In this document: positions 3,827-28,144 of the stretch, one piece after another
Layout of the letters: each line of letters opens with the position of its first letter
Position numbering within the stretch: position 1 is the stretch's first letter
Source: an uncultured Flavobacteriaceae bacterium
Lineage (GTDB): Bacteria; Bacteroidota; Bacteroidia; Flavobacteriales; Flavobacteriaceae
Direction: 5' to 3'
Length of the DNA: 64,000 nucleotides
NCBI GenBank assembly: GCA_964350765.1
Contig: CAYGMB010000002.1
Coordinates: forward strand, 22,774 to 86,773
Made by a program: the position numbers and the translations under genes
Notes under the pieces: model-generated
Seen by the model: the letters and a program-made list of their open reading frames with translations, nothing else
Told to the model about the DNA's origin: nothing
The model's database searches: none

Positions 3827-4234
3827 TTATTTAAATAATTGTTTTAATTTTTGCCAAAATGTTAATTTTGTTAGTTCTTCTATTTGTAAGTAAACATCTA
3901 TCTCATCATCTATAGCTTTTATTGTATCTCCATTTTTTAGGACTACCTCACAGCCTTCATCAAAATCTCCTGCAATATAAGAAACTTCATCTAAAGGTAT
4001 AAAAGCACTTACTATTTTAAAATCAAAAAATTCATCTGTAATTGGTAGAATATTTGTAGCTGATTTTTGCTTCAAATCATCAGGAATAGGTAAATTCATA
4101 TCCTCGTACCAACTTGCAGATTTTCCATTTTCATCTACAGGCTCTTCTACGGAGTCTTCAAACATATCTCTTATCTTACCTTCATGTTCTTCTTTTAACT
4201 GAGCTCTTCTAATACTTACTTCTAATAGTTTCAT
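3827..4234 (-). CDS. hypothetical, strongly acidic protein (135 aa)
   Basis: ORF track frame, started at the ATG 4232-4234 (MKLLEVSIRR...). The TTG at 4253-4255 used by the track lies inside a -7 promoter box. Confidence 0.6.
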   Translation of the reverse strand: MKLLEVSIRRAQLKEEHEGKIRDMFEDSVEEPVDENGKSASWYEDMNLPIPDDLKQKSATNILPITDEFFDFKIVSAFIPLDEVSYIAGDFDEGCEVVLKNGDTIKAIDDEIDVYLQIEELTKLTFWQKLKQLFK

Positions 4235-4252
4235 ATATTTATTTTGATAAAA

Positions 4253-4284
4253 CAAAGATAAGATTGTTGTTTCTACCTACCAAG
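4253..4284 (-). promoter_or_regulatory. Bacteroidetes-type promoter (imperfect -33)
   Basis: Minus strand: -7 box TATCTTTG (4253-4260), 20-nt spacer, -33 CTTG (4281-4284) instead of TTTG. The box ends 18 nt upstream of the ATG at 4234. Confidence 0.4.
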
Positions 4285-4617
4285 TTTTTAACAATACTTT
4301 AACATCGATTATGTATTGAAGGTCGGTTTTACTTTTTTATCCTTTTTAATCAAGGTGTTTTTGATATTACCTGAACTTACCTATCAGTCATTTTCAAGAT
4401 TGTCAGGTTATATTTTAGCTAAAGAGGGTTTTAATATTCCAACATTACCTACCTTAAGTCAAATAACATTGACTCTCTAAAACCTTCTCACGTAAATAAG
4501 ATAAGTCTAACATACAACGGTGAAAGATTTCATCCAATTACAGGTTACTTAAATAGGTTTTTAGTAGATGATATTCATTTAGCTATCGAAGCTGATTTTG
4601 AAAAACATAAATCCTTT

Positions 4618-4833
4618 ATGATTGAAACAGTACGTTCTTTTTTTAAAGATTACGATTCAAGTAATAAGTCAAACGAATCTTTTAGTCAACTTGAAATGCA
4701 CACAACTGCCTTTTTAAAATACTATGGTTTTAATAGTAACATAGTTTATCCACTATATTTAGGCAATTCAGAATTTAAAGTTTATTTAGAGGACTTGGAT
4801 AAATCTATTAAAAAAGGATTAGCCGAGTCTTGA
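4618..4833 (+). CDS. hypothetical protein (71 aa from first ATG; the frame stays open upstream to 4435)
   Basis: ORF track. The same frame has no stop back to 4435 and no ATG, GTG or TTG in that stretch. See the finding on a split ORF. Confidence 0.5.
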   Translation: MIETVRSFFKDYDSSNKSNESFSQLEMHTTAFLKYYGFNSNIVYPLYLGNSEFKVYLEDLDKSIKKGLAES

Positions 4834-23707: not shown

Positions 23708-25936
23708 ATGCCTGGAATTCATTCATCAATGTCACGCCATATGTTCACACTTAACGGAAACGTTTTAACAAGTGGTGGTGCCAAAAATTTAGCAAAAGGT
23801 CAGTTCGCTATCGTTAAAAGCGCAAGCGCAACTGCAAACGGAGCAGAAGTAGTAAGCAATTTTGCGGGACTACCTAAAAACACAGTATTTGAGATGCGTT
23901 TAGGAAAACATAAAATTCCTAAGACAAGAACAGCTCAAAACTCTGTAGCTTACAAATCAGAGACATTTAAACTATCAGACGTAGTTGGAGTAAAAGCCAA
24001 TTTCCCTAAATTCACAAAACAAACTTTTGATGAATTATTAATAGGATATGATGGTATCAATGCTGATACAGCAATCACTTTAGAAGAAGGACAAACTACA
24101 GTGCTTGATATTAAATTATCAGGAGATTATGTAGGCTTCATAACAGGAGATTGTAGCTATTCTTTCAAAATGAATTTTGGAAGAGAAGTAGGAGAAACTA
24201 ATCAAGAAGCAATCCTTAGATTAGTAGAGAGAATTAAAGAACAGGAGTTTCCACAAGGAGTATCTATATTAGATGCTGTTGAGATAACACCTATTGATAG
24301 TTCAAGAGGAGGATTACAAGGAACTTCATGGGTATTCAGTAACTTAATGGTTGTGGATAGCGGAGATTCAAATGCCCTTGGAGAAGTTCAAGCACAATAC
24401 CCTGCTCACAATGTAGTAAGAACAGACAGAAGTAATGGTGTATCTACTTATACTATTTTACACCCATCAACAGTATCTTTATCAGATTTTTCACAAACAG
24501 TAGCAAAATACTTAAAAGATTGTGAAGATTGTGCTAAGGAATATGATGCTGTGTCACAAGACGGTATTGTATATGTTGTAACATTAGAAGACGACGGTAC
24601 AGACCAAACATCTTTAGTAGACGACTTGCCTGGATTTGTAGCAAACACTGTAGTTAAAAAAGGAAACAAAGGTGGTGTAGGAACTTACACTGTAATTGTA
24701 GACGACGAACTTACATCAGCAGAGATTGCTTCTTATGTAGCAACAGCAGGTATTAAATCTACAGCAACTATTGAAAAATTAGGCACTGTAAGAGAAGTAT
24801 GTTATGATGATACAGAAACAACTATAGCTTGGACAACAGGAGAATCTTGTTATGCAAATGCAGATACTTACACAATCCAATTAAAAGATGACGATTGTGA
24901 TGGAAGTGTATTAGCTGAATTACAAGCTGCATTCCCTAACTTAGTTATTGAAGAAGGAGAGGCATCAGGAAGTGCATCACAAACAATTACAATAGCGGGT
25001 ACAACAGGAACTGCTATGGTAAATATAAGTGGTGTGGGTTACTTAGCAACGTTCAATGCAGATTTAGACACCACAGCGTCTGACTTTGTTGCTTCACATG
25101 CAGCAGCTATCTTAGCAGCTACAGGTCTTGTAGTAACAGCAGGTACAGCATCTATAATCTTAACAGGAGATGCATCAGATTTCCCTGCAGGAGCAGAAGT
25201 ACTCACTGCGTCAGGAGATTTAGCAGGTACAGTTGCAGCTATTGATTATGAAGTGGAAGCTTCAGAAGGAGGTTGCCAAAGAGTGTACTCTACACAAGTT
25301 GTTACAGATGTAGTGTGTGCAGAATGTGACCCAATTTTCTTAGAAAACTTCACATCAGAAGCCCCTGAATCATTTAATTTCACAGAGTGGAAATTATTAG
25401 AACCTACTTTTGATGAAAATGCATTAATGGGTATTAGATTAAAAGGAAAACCATTTATCATGGTACCTACAGAAGCAACAAGAGACCAAATACCTTTCTA
25501 CGAAACTTCAACAAGAATTGAAGCAGCAGGTGGGTATGTAGAAGAAACTTCAAACTCATTTGAACCTATCTTCAGCGATATCTTTAGTGTTAAAAGATTA
25601 TCAAGAGCACAAGACAGAGATAATTTAGGAGCACATTTAATGGACACTGAAGATGCATCAAGATATTACTTTGATGGGGAAGTAAGACACAAAGACAATT
25701 TGTTTGCAAAAGCAGTGTTAGGCGAAGAATCTGTATTGGAATTCCAAAAACAATATGTTTCATACGAAGTTGAAATATTGGATAACAAACGTTCTCAAGG
25801 TGTAGGTAGAAGCTCAGATATGGGCACAAGCTACATAATTTGGGCCGAATTTGGAAGACACGAAGCTTTAGAAGATTACGTGAATAGTTTAGCAGTGGCT
25901 TCAGGAAATTCTCCTGTACAAATCTCTGCTGAATAA
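23708..25936 (+). CDS. Ala/Thr/Gly-rich virion structural protein, role unresolved (742 aa)
   Basis: ORF track. It is followed by the strongest terminator in the window. Long low-complexity A/T/G/S stretches (TIAGTTGTAMVNISGVGYLATF...AAAILAATGLVVTAGTASIILTGDAS). Confidence 0.6.
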   Translation: MPGIHSSMSRHMFTLNGNVLTSGGAKNLAKGQFAIVKSASATANGAEVVSNFAGLPKNTVFEMRLGKHKIPKTRTAQNSVAYKSETFKLSDVVGVKANFPKFTKQTFDELLIGYDGINADTAITLEEGQTTVLDIKLSGDYVGFITGDCSYSFKMNFGREVGETNQEAILRLVERIKEQEFPQGVSILDAVEITPIDSSRGGLQGTSWVFSNLMVVDSGDSNALGEVQAQYPAHNVVRTDRSNGVSTYTILHPSTVSLSDFSQTVAKYLKDCEDCAKEYDAVSQDGIVYVVTLEDDGTDQTSLVDDLPGFVANTVVKKGNKGGVGTYTVIVDDELTSAEIASYVATAGIKSTATIEKLGTVREVCYDDTETTIAWTTGESCYANADTYTIQLKDDDCDGSVLAELQAAFPNLVIEEGEASGSASQTITIAGTTGTAMVNISGVGYLATFNADLDTTASDFVASHAAAILAATGLVVTAGTASIILTGDASDFPAGAEVLTASGDLAGTVAAIDYEVEASEGGCQRVYSTQVVTDVVCAECDPIFLENFTSEAPESFNFTEWKLLEPTFDENALMGIRLKGKPFIMVPTEATRDQIPFYETSTRIEAAGGYVEETSNSFEPIFSDIFSVKRLSRAQDRDNLGAHLMDTEDASRYYFDGEVRHKDNLFAKAVLGEESVLEFQKQYVSYEVEILDNKRSQGVGRSSDMGTSYIIWAEFGRHEALEDYVNSLAVASGNSPVQISAE

Positions 25937-25961: not shown

Positions 25962-25992
25962 AAAGGGGAGGGAAAATCCTCCCCTTTTTTTA
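25962..25992 (+). terminator. strong intrinsic terminator
   Basis: AAAGGGGAGG (25962-25971) - GAAAAT - CCTCCCCTTT (25978-25987), running into a T7 tract. Confidence 0.85.
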
Positions 25993-26052: not shown

Positions 26053-26640
26053 ATGCACAGAGTATTTGATAAATTTATAAATCACACAGATTTATATAAA
26101 CTTTCTATATGTACAGGAACTATTTTTACATCCCTATACACATTTTTATCTGATTTCACAGAGAAAGATTTTTTAGGGACAAGTTTAGTATTGTGGCTAC
26201 TTTTATTTATAATAAATGTTATAGATATCCATACAGGAATAAAAGCCGACACGAAAAGGAAAAAAGAAGTAGGGTCTAAATTCACGTTTGAGAGTGGAAA
26301 AGGATGGAGAGCAGTAGAAAAAATATTTGTTTTTACTGTAGTTATAGGGTTTTTGTATATTTTTGAAAAAGAGTCTTTAAAATTATCATTACCATTAGTA
26401 ATAACAACTTCTTTTACATATTGCAAATTATTGGTGTTTTTCTATGCTTTTTTAATAGAATTACAATCAATAGGTGAAAACGAAGAAGCGAGATTTGGAA
26501 AAAAAGGAAAAATGTTTGTTATGTTGGATAATATAATAGACGTGACAAACGAAGGAATACTTAAAAAAATAAAAAGCTTTTTCTCAACTGCACCTGACAA
26601 TAACAATAATGAGCCTCCAATAGAAGAAACAGAACAATAA
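26053..26640 (+). CDS. holin candidate (four hydrophobic helices; Phage_holin_4_1-like D-x-x-TG motif)
   Basis: 195 aa. Helices at about LSICTGTIFTSLYTFL, SLVLWLLLFIINVI, IFVFTVVIGFLYIF and LLVFFYAFLIEL. IDIHTGIKAD resembles the conserved D-x-x-TG-x-x-A of that holin family. It lies directly upstream of the endolysin. Confidence 0.6.
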   Translation: MHRVFDKFINHTDLYKLSICTGTIFTSLYTFLSDFTEKDFLGTSLVLWLLLFIINVIDIHTGIKADTKRKKEVGSKFTFESGKGWRAVEKIFVFTVVIGFLYIFEKESLKLSLPLVITTSFTYCKLLVFFYAFLIELQSIGENEEARFGKKGKMFVMLDNIIDVTNEGILKKIKSFFSTAPDNNNNEPPIEETEQ

Positions 26641-26642
26641 AA

Positions 26643-27182
26643 ATGGCAGCAGATAAAATAACATTGGACAGAATAAAAACACTACACCCTAAAATAAGAA
26701 AAGAAGTTTTAGATGCATATTTATACATAAATAACAAATTGTTAGGAAAAGGTGTTAGATTAAGATTTTCACACACAACAAGAACATTTAAAGAACAAGA
26801 TGATTTATATGCTTTAGGTAGAACTAAAAAAGGTAAAAAAATTACAAATGCAAAAGCAGGGCAATCTTACCATAATTATTCCTTAGCTCTTGATATAGTT
26901 TTATTATATGATAAAGATAAGAATGGCACATTTGAAACAGCTTCTTGGGATACATTATTCGATGGAGATGGTGACGGAGTGTCAGATTGGTTAGAGGTTA
27001 CAAGGTATTTAGAAAGCAGGGGGTTTCAAAATGGATTTTTACGTAACGGGAAAAAATGGGACTTACCACATTTTCAAAAAACATTCGGATACAGTTGGAA
27101 ACAATTGAAAAGTAAAATAGAACGAGGAGATTATACCGAAGAGATTATAAATGGGAAGAAGTATAAATACGCAAATTTATGA
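26643..27182 (+). CDS. endolysin, LAS-type zinc peptidase (Peptidase M15 / VanY-like)
   Basis: 179 aa. FSHTTRTFKEQDDLYALGR, H-x6-D in SYHNYSLALDIV, and the distal His in WDLPHFQ: the metal-ligand arrangement of M15 cell-wall peptidases. Confidence 0.8.
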   Translation: MAADKITLDRIKTLHPKIRKEVLDAYLYINNKLLGKGVRLRFSHTTRTFKEQDDLYALGRTKKGKKITNAKAGQSYHNYSLALDIVLLYDKDKNGTFETASWDTLFDGDGDGVSDWLEVTRYLESRGFQNGFLRNGKKWDLPHFQKTFGYSWKQLKSKIERGDYTEEIINGKKYKYANL

Positions 27183-27517
27183 AAGTAAAATGGTATTGGA
27201 TTGTCATAATAGTTATTGTTTTAGGAGTTGTTGTTGATAAATATTTTCAGAATAAACAAGAAGATAAGTTTAAAGAGAAGATAGAGACATTAGAAAAAGA
27301 GAGAGATAGTATTAAAAAACAAAGACTCTTGTACCATTTAGAAATAGATTCTATAAATAATATCATAAAATCGAAAAATAAAAAAATAGAGTCTTTAACT
27401 ATAAAAGTAGATTCACTATCTAAAAAAAGACATGAAGCACTTAATAATGTTTATAACTATGATGATGCTAAACTTGACAGCATTCTCACAAATTACAGGC
27501 ATCCCAAGAGAAACTAA
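27179..27517 (+). CDS. i-spanin-like protein (N-terminal TM helix plus coiled coil)
   Basis: 112 aa. WYWIVIIVIVLGVVV, then heptad-like KFKEKIETLEKERDSIKKQ... ATGA overlap with the endolysin stop. Its 3' end overlaps the next gene by 86 nt. Confidence 0.5.
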   Translation: MKVKWYWIVIIVIVLGVVVDKYFQNKQEDKFKEKIETLEKERDSIKKQRLLYHLEIDSINNIIKSKNKKIESLTIKVDSLSKKRHEALNNVYNYDDAKLDSILTNYRHPKRN

Positions 27518-27896
27518 ACAAGAGATAGTTTATACTTTGATGGCATATCCAATTGCATTAGAAGAAATAAATACTTTATCAGAGCTTAATAGAGAGTTTG
27601 TGGAACTACTAAAAAAAGAACAAGAAAAAAACTCCATTTACGAAGAATTATTCATAAATCAACAAAATGAAATAGACAACCTTTTAAAACAAAAAAAGGA
27701 GTATAAAAAACAATTAGAAAAAGCAAATAGTTACGGTTTTATATATGGTCAGGTAAATTTAAATGGGTTAGATTATTATGCCATAGGAATTGATTATATA
27801 GTTAAAGGAAAAATTATTGTAGGAGGGAACATTTCATATGATAATTTTTATAAAAATGTAAATACGAACTTAAAAATAGGATTTAAAACATTTTAA
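27432..27896 (+). CDS. secreted coiled-coil protein with C-terminal OMP-type beta-signal (outer-membrane spanin analogue?)
   Basis: 154 aa. Signal-peptide-like MKHLIMFITMMMLNLTAFSQ, a coiled-coil middle, and a beta-rich end ...NVNTNLKIGFKTF with alternating hydrophobics and a terminal Phe. No lipobox Cys. It starts inside 27179-27517 in another frame. Confidence 0.5.
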   Translation: MKHLIMFITMMMLNLTAFSQITGIPRETKQEIVYTLMAYPIALEEINTLSELNREFVELLKKEQEKNSIYEELFINQQNEIDNLLKQKKEYKKQLEKANSYGFIYGQVNLNGLDYYAIGIDYIVKGKIIVGGNISYDNFYKNVNTNLKIGFKTF

Positions 27897-27898
27897 AT

Positions 27899-28144
27899 AT
27901 GAAATACAAATATTTTAATCTAATCAACGACTTAAAAAATACATTGGTTGTTGAAGAGTTAGAATCTTCAGTAAACACTGCACTTTATAATCAAACAGTA
28001 AATAATCTTAGTTGGTATGGGCTACCAAGAGATATAAAAAAACTTATTGATTTAATTAATCATTCTTCTATTATAATAGAAAACAAGGTTAGTTGGTATA
28101 ATGTTAGAGAAAAAGCTGAAGAAATCTATAATAACTTTAATTAA
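27899..28144 (+). CDS. hypothetical protein (81 aa)
   Basis: ORF track; tight packing. Confidence 0.5.
   Translation: MKYKYFNLINDLKNTLVVEELESSVNTALYNQTVNNLSWYGLPRDIKKLIDLINHSSIIIENKVSWYNVREKAEEIYNNFN

Follow-up and report, generated by a model that had tools for sequence, protein, structure and literature searches.

A spanin-like gene pair with a putative beta-strand outer-membrane anchor in a phage lysis block from an uncultured Flavobacteriaceae bacterium

Two overlapping genes of a probably phage-derived lysis block appear, on balance, to encode a two-component spanin-like complex for the last step of lysis, whose outer-membrane (OM) subunit would be anchored by beta-strands and not as a lipoprotein. 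The block lies in a stretch of 64,000 nucleotides (nt) from an uncultured Flavobacteriaceae bacterium (assembly GCA_964350765.1, contig CAYGMB010000002.1, positions 22,774 to 86,773 of the forward strand), hereafter the window, and the two genes in question encode an Rz-like protein and a 154-amino-acid (aa) open reading frame (ORF) termed ORF4. This reading rests on strong comparative evidence. The window pair is probably a non-lipoprotein spanin, and that its two proteins form one lysis-linked envelope unit is held with considerably greater confidence than the full statement, for which confidence is kept just above even because a group of helix-tailed relatives (class b, below) does not fit. 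An earlier sequence-only reading of this DNA had proposed a spanin pair with an OM barrel; its coordinates and sequences were all confirmed on re-reading the region, and natural fusions, the range of architectures, a structural model and the missing lipobox now speak for a lysis-linked pair and for a beta-strand rather than a lipid anchor.

An overlapping gene pair and its natural fusions

The genes for a holin, an M15 endolysin, the Rz-like protein and ORF4 follow one another in this order and constitute a lysis block, the parts of which that matter most to the argument are as follows.

26053–26640, forward strand: holin candidate, 195 aa, with several hydrophobic segments (PF05105 Phage_holin_4_1, phrog_14595)
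26643–27182, forward strand: M15 peptidase endolysin (L-alanoyl-D-glutamate peptidase/VanY), 179 aa, with PF02557 and PF13539 above cut-off
27179–27517, forward strand: Rz-like inner-membrane subunit, a candidate inner spanin subunit (i-spanin), 112 aa, with N-terminal signal-anchor helix and coiled coil
27432–27896, forward strand: ORF4, 154 aa, with signal peptide, helix and four C-terminal beta-strands
27432–27517, forward strand: dual-coding overlap of 86 nt, comprising the 3' end of the Rz-like gene and, in the +1 frame, the ORF4 signal peptide and first mature residues
27432–27491, forward strand: ORF4 signal peptide MKHLIMFITMMMLNLTAFS, followed by Gln, with a site of signal peptidase I type, A-x-S before Gln (A-F-S/Q; the slash marks the cleavage point)
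27492–27566, forward strand: N-terminal domain of mature ORF4, QITGIPRETKQEIVYTLMAYPIALE, the putative docking site for the C-terminus of the Rz-like protein
27567–27719, forward strand: variable coiled-coil rod of ORF4, modelled by AlphaFold2 as one helix jointly with the N-terminal domain
27729–27893, forward strand: C-terminal four-strand beta module of 55 aa (SYGFIYGQVNLNG...NLKIGFKTF), modelled by AlphaFold2 with a predicted local distance difference test (pLDDT) score of about 90; proposed OM anchor

The Rz-like protein begins with a hydrophobic N-terminus, WYWIVIIVIVLGVVV, and is charged and helical over the rest of its length; a signal-anchor helix is predicted at about residues 5–19 (hydropathy of 2.2 over 19 residues), and the C-terminus holds the conserved motif LDSILTNYRHPKRN, in which DSI is invariant. 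The N-terminal transmembrane (TM) helix and coiled coil described earlier agree with the hydropathy, the charged helical remainder and a match to phrog_739 ‘Rz-like spanin’ (expectation value, E, of 5e-4), which four of 11 members of the protein's family match (best E of 1.9e-5). These features indicate an N-in signal anchor with a periplasmic coiled coil, i.e., the predicted type II inner-membrane protein that is characteristic of an i-spanin.

ORF4 opens in the +1 frame, 86 nt ahead of the Rz-like stop codon, starts with MKHLIMFITMMMLNLTAFSQ and ends in ...NVNTNLKIGFKTF. That ORF4 is genuinely a gene, rather than an ORF arisen by chance, follows from homologues at 29–67% identity, which retain the same overlap and features; those at 49–67% identity occupy the same place in four metagenomic contigs. 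The overlap noted in the earlier reading was read directly and recurs in homologous loci, being identical at 86 nt in L001, L002 and L004 and extending to 101 nt in L012 and 128 nt in L013, and the arrangement as a whole (an overlapping pair next to lysis genes) is conserved in L001–L004, L012 and L013. Likewise, all four syntenic loci keep a start at MK[HY], upstream of the called one, and after it a hydrophobic segment that closes with [TI]A[FY]S-Q. Automatic calls of ORF4 and its close homologues (P0001–P0005) begin 9–10 codons late, at a Met or Leu within the gene; it seems that the overlap was avoided in this way, at the cost of the signal peptide, which is lost from the annotation; the same artefact has been reported for overlapped spanin genes by Kongari et al. 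(PMC6139136). The regions omitted by these late starts are the following.

Window 27432–27458: late-start region of ORF4
L001 5971–6000: late-start region of the homologue
L002 1243–1272: late-start region of the homologue
L004 589–621: late-start region of the homologue

The signal-peptide-like N-terminus that had been proposed for ORF4 is borne out across the family, in which the hydrophobic stretch and the A-x-S/Q site are conserved, the latter as [TI][AV]xSQ; distant relatives with correctly called starts have canonical signal peptides ending in A-x-S/Q. A signal peptidase I site followed by Gln is typical of Bacteroidota and is known as the ‘Q-rule’ (PMC10367356). Judged from sequence features and their conservation, ORF4 would be exported by Sec and presumably cut at AFS/Q, and it carries a signal peptide of the signal peptidase I type found on integral outer-membrane proteins (OMPs). 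In the N-terminal domain of the mature protein, K29, E31, V33, Y39 and P40 are nearly invariant.

Outer spanin subunits (o-spanins) are OM lipoproteins with a lipobox and a Cys at +1. ORF4 is of another kind, in keeping with the earlier remark that a lipobox Cys is missing: it contains no Cys at all, and the cleavage motif of its family is A-x-S/Q. No canonical lipobox occurs at any ORF start in the six frames of the whole window. From the endolysin to the last codon of the 81-aa ORF downstream of the pair, the open segments around the Cys codons of all forward frames never exceed 31 residues and contain nothing resembling a signal sequence. The two scans together rule out a hidden Rz1-like lipoprotein ORF, and the lack of an Rz1-type partner is thus genuine rather than an oversight.

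A tblastn search with ORF4 against 50,697 GenBank phage records gave no match, neither IMG/VR nor the GTDB species genomes yielded relatives in pattern scans built on the ORF4 alignment, and searches of Pfam, PHROGs and NCBIfam returned coiled-coil noise only. With HMMER, 1.84 billion representative proteins were searched exhaustively; the 40 clusters obtained contain three forms besides the window type, namely, fusions, linker-type single chains (class c) and helix-tailed proteins (class b); the top match of this search, P0006, is a plant kinase repeat protein and was discarded as a false positive.

The fusions (P0011, P0012, P0014, P0037 and P0045; 228–241 aa) combine the Rz-like protein, the ORF4 core and the beta module in one chain, in which the Rz-like ...DSII..PK[KR] is joined directly to the ORF4 core E.V.T[IL]..YPL, without the ORF4 signal peptide and first mature residues. 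On three contigs of related phages, P0011 stands in the exact slot of the window pair, i.e., after the 742-aa gene, the holin and the M15 endolysin and before the 81-aa gene and the fibre genes. By the classical fusion-type argument, such natural head-to-tail fusions argue that the two proteins of the window function as a single unit, and the order of the parts indicates that the C-terminus of the Rz-like protein meets the N-terminus of ORF4. With respect to subunit binding and the spanning of the periplasm, the fusions would thus argue for both physical and functional coupling.

Class c comprises at least 199 proteins (clusters) of about 185–200 aa, mostly marine and annotated only as hypothetical, which are built from an N-terminal membrane helix, a juxtamembrane Cys, a beta-type linker rich in Thr, Ile and Lys, and the same C-terminal module. 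The class c gene directly follows a Peptidase_M15_3 gene in L028 and L029 and lies one gene away from it in L026 and L027; the first contig obtained, with only a sigma-factor-like neighbour, was uninformative, and longer contigs resolved the context. Similarly, in 68 records from cultured Flavobacterium phages of the genus Elemovirus, the homologue, gp32, lies three genes after a gene for a ‘D-alanyl-D-alanine carboxypeptidase’ (M15 peptidase). Representative loci are given below.

L026 5001–5573: class c gene
L028 5001–5567: class c gene
L030 3995–4540: class c gene, Flavobacterium phage elemoF gp32 (YP_010108981.1)

The juxtamembrane Cys of class c is conserved in 100 of 108 proteins in the context [KR][QS]C, which fits a periplasmic Cys beside a signal-anchor helix and recalls the disulfides of known spanins (PMC6139136); with K or R at −2 and mostly Q at −1, this ‘QC’ is ruled out as a lipobox. 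A pattern scan of IMG/VR with the class c alignment found no relatives.

Altogether, three unrelated families of peptidoglycan hydrolases (M15_4/VanY, Amidase_2 and M15_3) accompany the pair or its single-chain counterparts in different phage backbones. This linkage bears on the idea that ORF4 is a phage OMP with a role outside lysis, e.g., superinfection exclusion or receptor masking in the class of lambda Lom or T5 Llp, and merely sits beside the lysis genes. Phages do encode small OMPs, ORF4 combines a signal peptide with an OMP-like C-terminus, and transcription of the lysis block continues into the fibre genes, no terminator being present before 28700. However, such a role would leave unexplained the adjacency to three unrelated hydrolase families in different backbones, the translational overlap with a coiled-coil protein of Rz-like, inner-membrane type and the natural fusions of the two, and the predicted periplasmic rod of 70 residues; henceforth, a non-lysis OMP is regarded as improbable.

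The C-terminal beta module

The monomer of ORF4 was predicted with AlphaFold2 from an alignment of 32 sequences, giving a model of mean pLDDT 88.7 with a helix at residues 2–17 (the signal peptide), an uninterrupted helix at residues 26–96 (about 105 Å long), a four-residue connection and four strands at residues 101–108, 115–124, 128–137 and 142–151. The periplasmic-type coiled coil and beta-rich C-terminus of the earlier reading accordingly take shape in the model as one long helix and four strands. In each strand, a dyad alternation is seen across the family, with a hydrophobic or aromatic face of I, L, V, F and Y and an opposite, polar face of G, N, S and Q together with the conserved charges D121, K125, K148 and K152. 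The strands are connected by 6, 3 and 4 residues, the short middle connection, K-x-K, being a putative periplasmic turn, and Y105, Y122, Y136, F103 and F151 are conserved in the module, as is Gly. The module thereby has the strand features expected of OMPs, i.e., an even number of amphipathic antiparallel strands, short turns and aromatic strand ends. Four strands alone can neither bury a hydrophobic face nor close a barrel; consequently, the module must oligomerise or sit in a membrane.

The C-terminal residues were compared over 138 module-bearing proteins, of which 71% end in F, 20% in L, 4% in W, 4% in K and 1% in Y, so that F, L, W and Y together account for 96%. Their C-terminal consensus is N-h-K-h-G-[FI]-[KR]-[IL]-[FL], and the last strand alternates perfectly, with hydrophobic residues at −2, −4, −6 and −8, K or R at −3, and G at −5 instead of −6. 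Compared with the beta-signal consensus of E. coli, GxxPhixPhi (PMC13067283), the module is one residue out of register. The ‘classical’ BAM signal (BAM, beta-barrel assembly machinery) that had been seen in this C-terminus therefore holds in part: the alternating hydrophobic residues and the aromatic or Leu end were recovered throughout most of the family, whereas the register is shifted relative to the E. coli pattern. TonB-dependent receptors of the host's class end in ...NLKLRYFLK, which suggests that the phylum may follow a looser or different beta-signal rule of its own.

Several weak similarities point from the module to the OM. Using a profile of the module only (alignment A6), the best PDB match was a hairpin in chain F of 9HJM, an ‘Outer membrane protein’ (E of 0.018). 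This entry is the BAM complex of Porphyromonas gingivalis (PMC12578637), and chain F, of 434 aa, is probably its integral FadL-like subunit BamG. When the module profile was run against the six frames of 300 genomes of the same class, 28 were matched at E ≤ 0.01, with about three expected; the ten best loci include three TonB-dependent receptor barrels, one PorP/SprF barrel and three DUF5916 proteins, and a further one of them, the 127-aa match L020 in a host-class genome, is not a credible protein. Among the top 32 matches of the ORF4 model in a Foldseek search of viral predicted structures (BFVD) are six phage proteins whose names refer to YadA-like membrane anchors or agglutinating adhesins, at weak E values of 8e-3 to 0.12. 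The best viral match, 181 aa long, aligns with the module at 28% identity; from its length alone, it may be the elemovirus homologue gp32. Each of these similarities is unconvincing alone; taken together, as three weak and concordant signals, with the strand chemistry, they support an OM beta-hairpin character of the module.

Other matches were set aside, namely, a fragment of the EspP barrel at rank 10 in the PDB search with the ORF4 model (E of 0.36), which is not evidence; matches to OmpW (E of 0.015–0.06), which are too weak for use alone; and NCBIfam ‘BamJ’ matches, which fall on the N-terminal TM-plus-coil part of the fused proteins and are uninformative on the barrel. A likeness of the module to the anchor of trimeric autotransporters had also been drawn, and it stands as far as shape is concerned, with a coiled coil followed by four strands and the YadA-like Foldseek matches. 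Membership in that family is ruled out: PF03895 YadA_anchor gave no match at E ≤ 0.1 in any of the 32 family members, and it was found in none of 201 host-class genomes, the E. coli control being positive.

Helix-tailed relatives and points of doubt

Class b consists of at least 40 close relatives that retain the signal peptide, the N-terminal domain, the coiled coil and the Rz-like partner. Their genes are overlapped by an upstream Rz-like gene, the product of which carries the C-terminal motif LDSI[LI].N[HY]RH. Two such pairs are the following.

L012 4676–5336: class b pair
L013 4766–5372: class b pair

The L012 pair lies at the end of a prophage, next to the integrase and behind an Amidase_2 endolysin, away from fibre genes. 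Its position counts against a further possibility, according to which the pair would belong with the downstream fibre genes as a module for the virion, for tail-fibre assembly or for chaperoning. Such a module would suit the place of the window pair between head and fibre genes, with the 81-aa ORF and fibre-like genes directly after it, and also the class c loci, in which the M15_3 gene follows a very large tape-measure-like gene and could encode a tail lysin; however, a cleavable Sec signal peptide and a membrane anchor are unfit for virion assembly in the cytoplasm, and this explanation is very improbable. Two observations on these loci may be added. In L012, a 103-aa ORF with a Q-rule signal peptide ending in SVSA/Q (4368–4679) lies between the holin-like and Rz-like genes of the prophage lysis block and could be a third envelope component of the helix-tailed systems. 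In L013, the expected position of the endolysin holds a 195-aa protein (4027–4614) with no Pfam match and assigned to phrog_3000, which may be an unrecognised peptidoglycan hydrolase.

A number of points weigh against a beta-strand-anchored spanin, and class b supplies the foremost of them. These proteins end in a single Gly-rich hydrophobic helix of 14–20 residues and have no beta module (Pfam detected no glycine-zipper family in them); under the standard rules of Sec export, such a tail is expected to be retained in the inner membrane, so that both subunits would lie in the same membrane. Furthermore, a tree of the shared core mixes the two anchor types and needs about seven changes between them; this tree, built on 81 columns, is poorly resolved and does not allow swaps to be counted reliably, and one mixed-anchor clade has 93% support in the Shimodaira–Hasegawa-like approximate likelihood-ratio test (SH-aLRT) and a shared -INI- motif. 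Evolution thus seems to treat the beta module and the hydrophobic helix as equivalent, so that either the class b helix behaves like a fusion peptide that ends up in the OM, or the function of the family needs no pre-formed OM anchor. Apart from class b, Foldseek with the ORF4 model found nothing in the PDB at E ≤ 0.001, all similarities of the module to OM proteins are below the usual thresholds of significance, and the C-terminus departs from the E. coli register. Cys is absent from the Rz-like protein as well as from ORF4, while about 96% of known spanins have a periplasmic Cys and form intermolecular disulfides (PMC6139136), and the PHROG support for the Rz-like protein of the window is weak.

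The structure of the fused form may be read in two ways. Its AlphaFold2 model (pLDDT of 91; predicted template-modelling score, pTM, of 0.68) consists of two long helices, about 155 helical residues in all, and the same four strands, and in Foldseek it matches generic antiparallel coiled-coil hairpins only, e.g., colicin E3, CT398 and EmrA. Such matches suggest a folded-back fusion with the membrane helix and the beta module at the same end, which in turn suggests, as far as a model can, the geometry that spanins are proposed to adopt when collapsed and fusogenic; monomer predictions by AlphaFold tend to pack helices, and the hairpin may be an artefact, which is to be added to the points of doubt above.

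The same hairpin, with both ends together, would also suit a lysis-associated envelope complex whose second subunit is not pre-anchored in the OM. In such a complex, the C-terminal element, represented by the four strands in the window pair and by the Gly-rich helix in class b, would be membrane-active or like a fusion peptide and would serve for insertion or oligomerisation. Until lysis it would reside within or at the inner membrane, or in the periplasm in a shielded state, and it would attack the OM only after degradation of the wall; alternatively, the complex would regulate the action of holin or endolysin. The interchange of beta module and hydrophobic helix among close relatives with the same partner, the non-canonical beta-signal and the lack of a significant structural match in the PDB all favour it. 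Nevertheless, the fused and linker-type chains already have an inner-membrane helix at their other end, which would make a second such anchor pointless; integral OM barrels typically show such a strand pattern, with conserved Gly and Tyr, a short turn like K-x-K and a hydrophobic or aromatic last residue, and OM barrels are also where the weak profile matches fall. A subunit that is not pre-anchored is consequently considered unlikely, yet it is the alternative to be taken most seriously.

Proposed mechanism, known systems and genomic surroundings

If the beta-strand-anchored spanin is taken as the working model, the Rz-like protein would be held in the inner membrane by its N-terminal helix, as its sequence supports, and ORF4, once exported and processed, would have its four-strand module inserted into the OM, probably by BAM. 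Trimeric autotransporters and TolC are BAM-built oligomeric barrels to which each protomer contributes four strands; in a comparable manner, two or three copies of the module may form a homo-oligomeric barrel of 8 or 12 strands. The 70-residue helix of ORF4 would then hang into the periplasm, in a layout like that of TolC or of an inverted trimeric-autotransporter anchor, and the N-terminal domain of the mature protein would bind the C-terminal LDSI..N.RH of the Rz-like protein head-to-tail, as the natural fusions suggest. The two rods together would bridge roughly 200–240 Å, as would the fusion. Upon removal of the peptidoglycan by the endolysin, the rods, by analogy with Rz/Rz1, might collapse into a helical hairpin, pull the anchors together and disrupt or fuse the OM.

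Compared with the two-component spanins lambda Rz/Rz1 and T4 PseT.3/PseT.2 (PMC6139136), the window pair is similar in several respects. Spanin genes are embedded, overlapped or adjacent and are linked to holin and endolysin genes, and the pair follows both a holin and an endolysin gene, its second gene opening, in the +1 frame, before the first has ended (the ‘overlapped’ architecture); moreover, the first subunit is a predicted type II inner-membrane protein with a periplasmic coiled coil and a weak PHROG match, and the combined length suffices for the periplasm. In contrast, ORF4 has a signal peptidase I signal with no lipobox and no Cys, and is itself a long helix instead of a short proline-rich peptide. 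Because ORF4 would be anchored at its C-terminus, the subunits would meet head-to-tail and not C-terminus to C-terminus as in Rz/Rz1, a geometry that permits natural single-chain fusions, which are impossible for Rz/Rz1.

The unimolecular spanin (u-spanin) T1 gp11 resembles the fused and linker-type relatives, which are also single chains with a membrane element at each end, encoded beside a hydrolase gene, and in the linker-type relatives also with a beta-rich periplasmic segment. The polarity is opposite, given that the relatives have an N-terminal TM helix and a C-terminal beta module whereas gp11 has an N-terminal lipoprotein signal and a C-terminal TM helix; there is no sequence similarity, the fused relatives have no lipobox, and the window itself encodes two chains. 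The disruptin phiKT gp28 (bioRxiv 10.1101/515445) differs in being a short cationic amphipathic peptide with no partner, signal peptide or anchors. With the YadA_anchor proteins of PF03895 (Hia, YadA), the ORF4 model shares the coiled-coil helix, the four-residue connection, the four C-terminal strands and the aromatic end; unlike theirs, which thread the pore, the helix of ORF4 must stay periplasmic in order to meet the Rz-like protein, and the sequence match is lacking. TolC-type OM factors are alike in having four strands per protomer in a shared barrel, periplasmic helices of about 100 Å and an inner-membrane coiled-coil partner, but ORF4 is far smaller, has one helix per protomer and would not be expected to function as a channel, and no similarity to these factors was detected.

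To our knowledge, every spanin so far described reaches the OM via a lipoprotein anchor, and search tools are built on the lipobox. As a result of such tools, about 13% of the phages of Gram-negative hosts count as ‘spanin-less’, including Croceibacter and Bacteroides phages (PMC6139136). In the same study, Kongari et al. (2018) defined o-spanins and u-spanins by the lipobox, which places other anchors outside their criteria; an o-spanin of the OMP type was allowed for (‘an OMP could act as an o-spanin’) but lay beyond the reach of those criteria. Full-text searches for a spanin system with a beta-barrel or of another non-lipoprotein kind, or for one from Bacteroidetes or Flavobacterium, turned up no description of such a system. 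A beta-strand-anchored outer spanin subunit, as the window pair appears to include, was therefore proposed in 2018 and has not been found described.

A broader proposal may be put forward more tentatively, with somewhat less than even confidence: that the 55-aa module marks out a spanin superfamily, dependent on BAM and free of lipid, among the phages of Flavobacteriia and their relatives; the superfamily would occur in three interconvertible architectures (overlapping genes, head-to-tail fusion, and single chain with a beta-rich linker) around a mini-barrel of two or three times four strands. The helix-tailed relatives would then be a variant in which a segment like a fusion peptide replaces the barrel. 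Such a superfamily, if real, would be the ‘OMP as o-spanin’ of Kongari et al. and would account for many ‘spanin-less’ Bacteroidota phages.

Should the beta-strand anchor hold true, OM disruption could use the BAM pathway instead of Lol, and a new annotation signature would become available for the last lysis step in the ecologically important marine Bacteroidota phages. In addition, the two-gene, fused, linker and helix-tailed forms would provide a natural series in which to ask what a minimal spanin needs, and a homo-oligomeric mini-barrel would possibly be added to the known OM folds. The idea is directly testable, since cultured phage–host pairs exist (Flavobacterium sp. BAL314 and elemoviruses).

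The pair is flanked by the following further features of the window.

25962–25987, forward strand: strong intrinsic terminator, with an 11-bp stem containing 6 GC pairs and then a T run; upstream edge of the lysis block
27899–28144, forward strand: conserved 81-aa ORF after the pair, without signal peptide or membrane helix and with no family match in Pfam or PHROGs

The terminator is the strongest of the region and closes the preceding structural gene, the 742-aa product of which (23708–25936) matches phrog_32037 (E of 3e-93) and is conserved in length in related phages. The holin candidate barely passes its family threshold in PF05105 (E of 1.5e-4; 22.3 bits against a cut-off of 22.2). The endolysin matches phrog_2649 endolysin (E of 1.8e-19), and its DNA resembles lysins of Riemerella, Cellulophaga and Flavobacterium phages. 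Downstream of the pair, the 81-aa ORF trails the pair or the fusion in every syntenic locus and may fall outside the lysis function.

The contig that contains the window is 136.5 kb long and belongs to a fragmented metagenome bin of 2.8 Mb, and relatives occur on contigs of up to about 129 kb, so that the window probably comes from a large phage genome. Observations point to Flavobacteriia as hosts of these phages, on account of the similarity of the endolysin DNA, the source names of relatives, two of which carry the names Mesoflavibacter and Psychroserpens (bins), and tails of the type IX secretion system (T9SS) in related loci. These tails are sorting tails (PF18962 Por_Secre_tail) on phage proteins at L007 6671–7424 and L012 1717–2247, one of which also carries a GSDH domain, and they suggest that the phages exploit the T9SS of the host.

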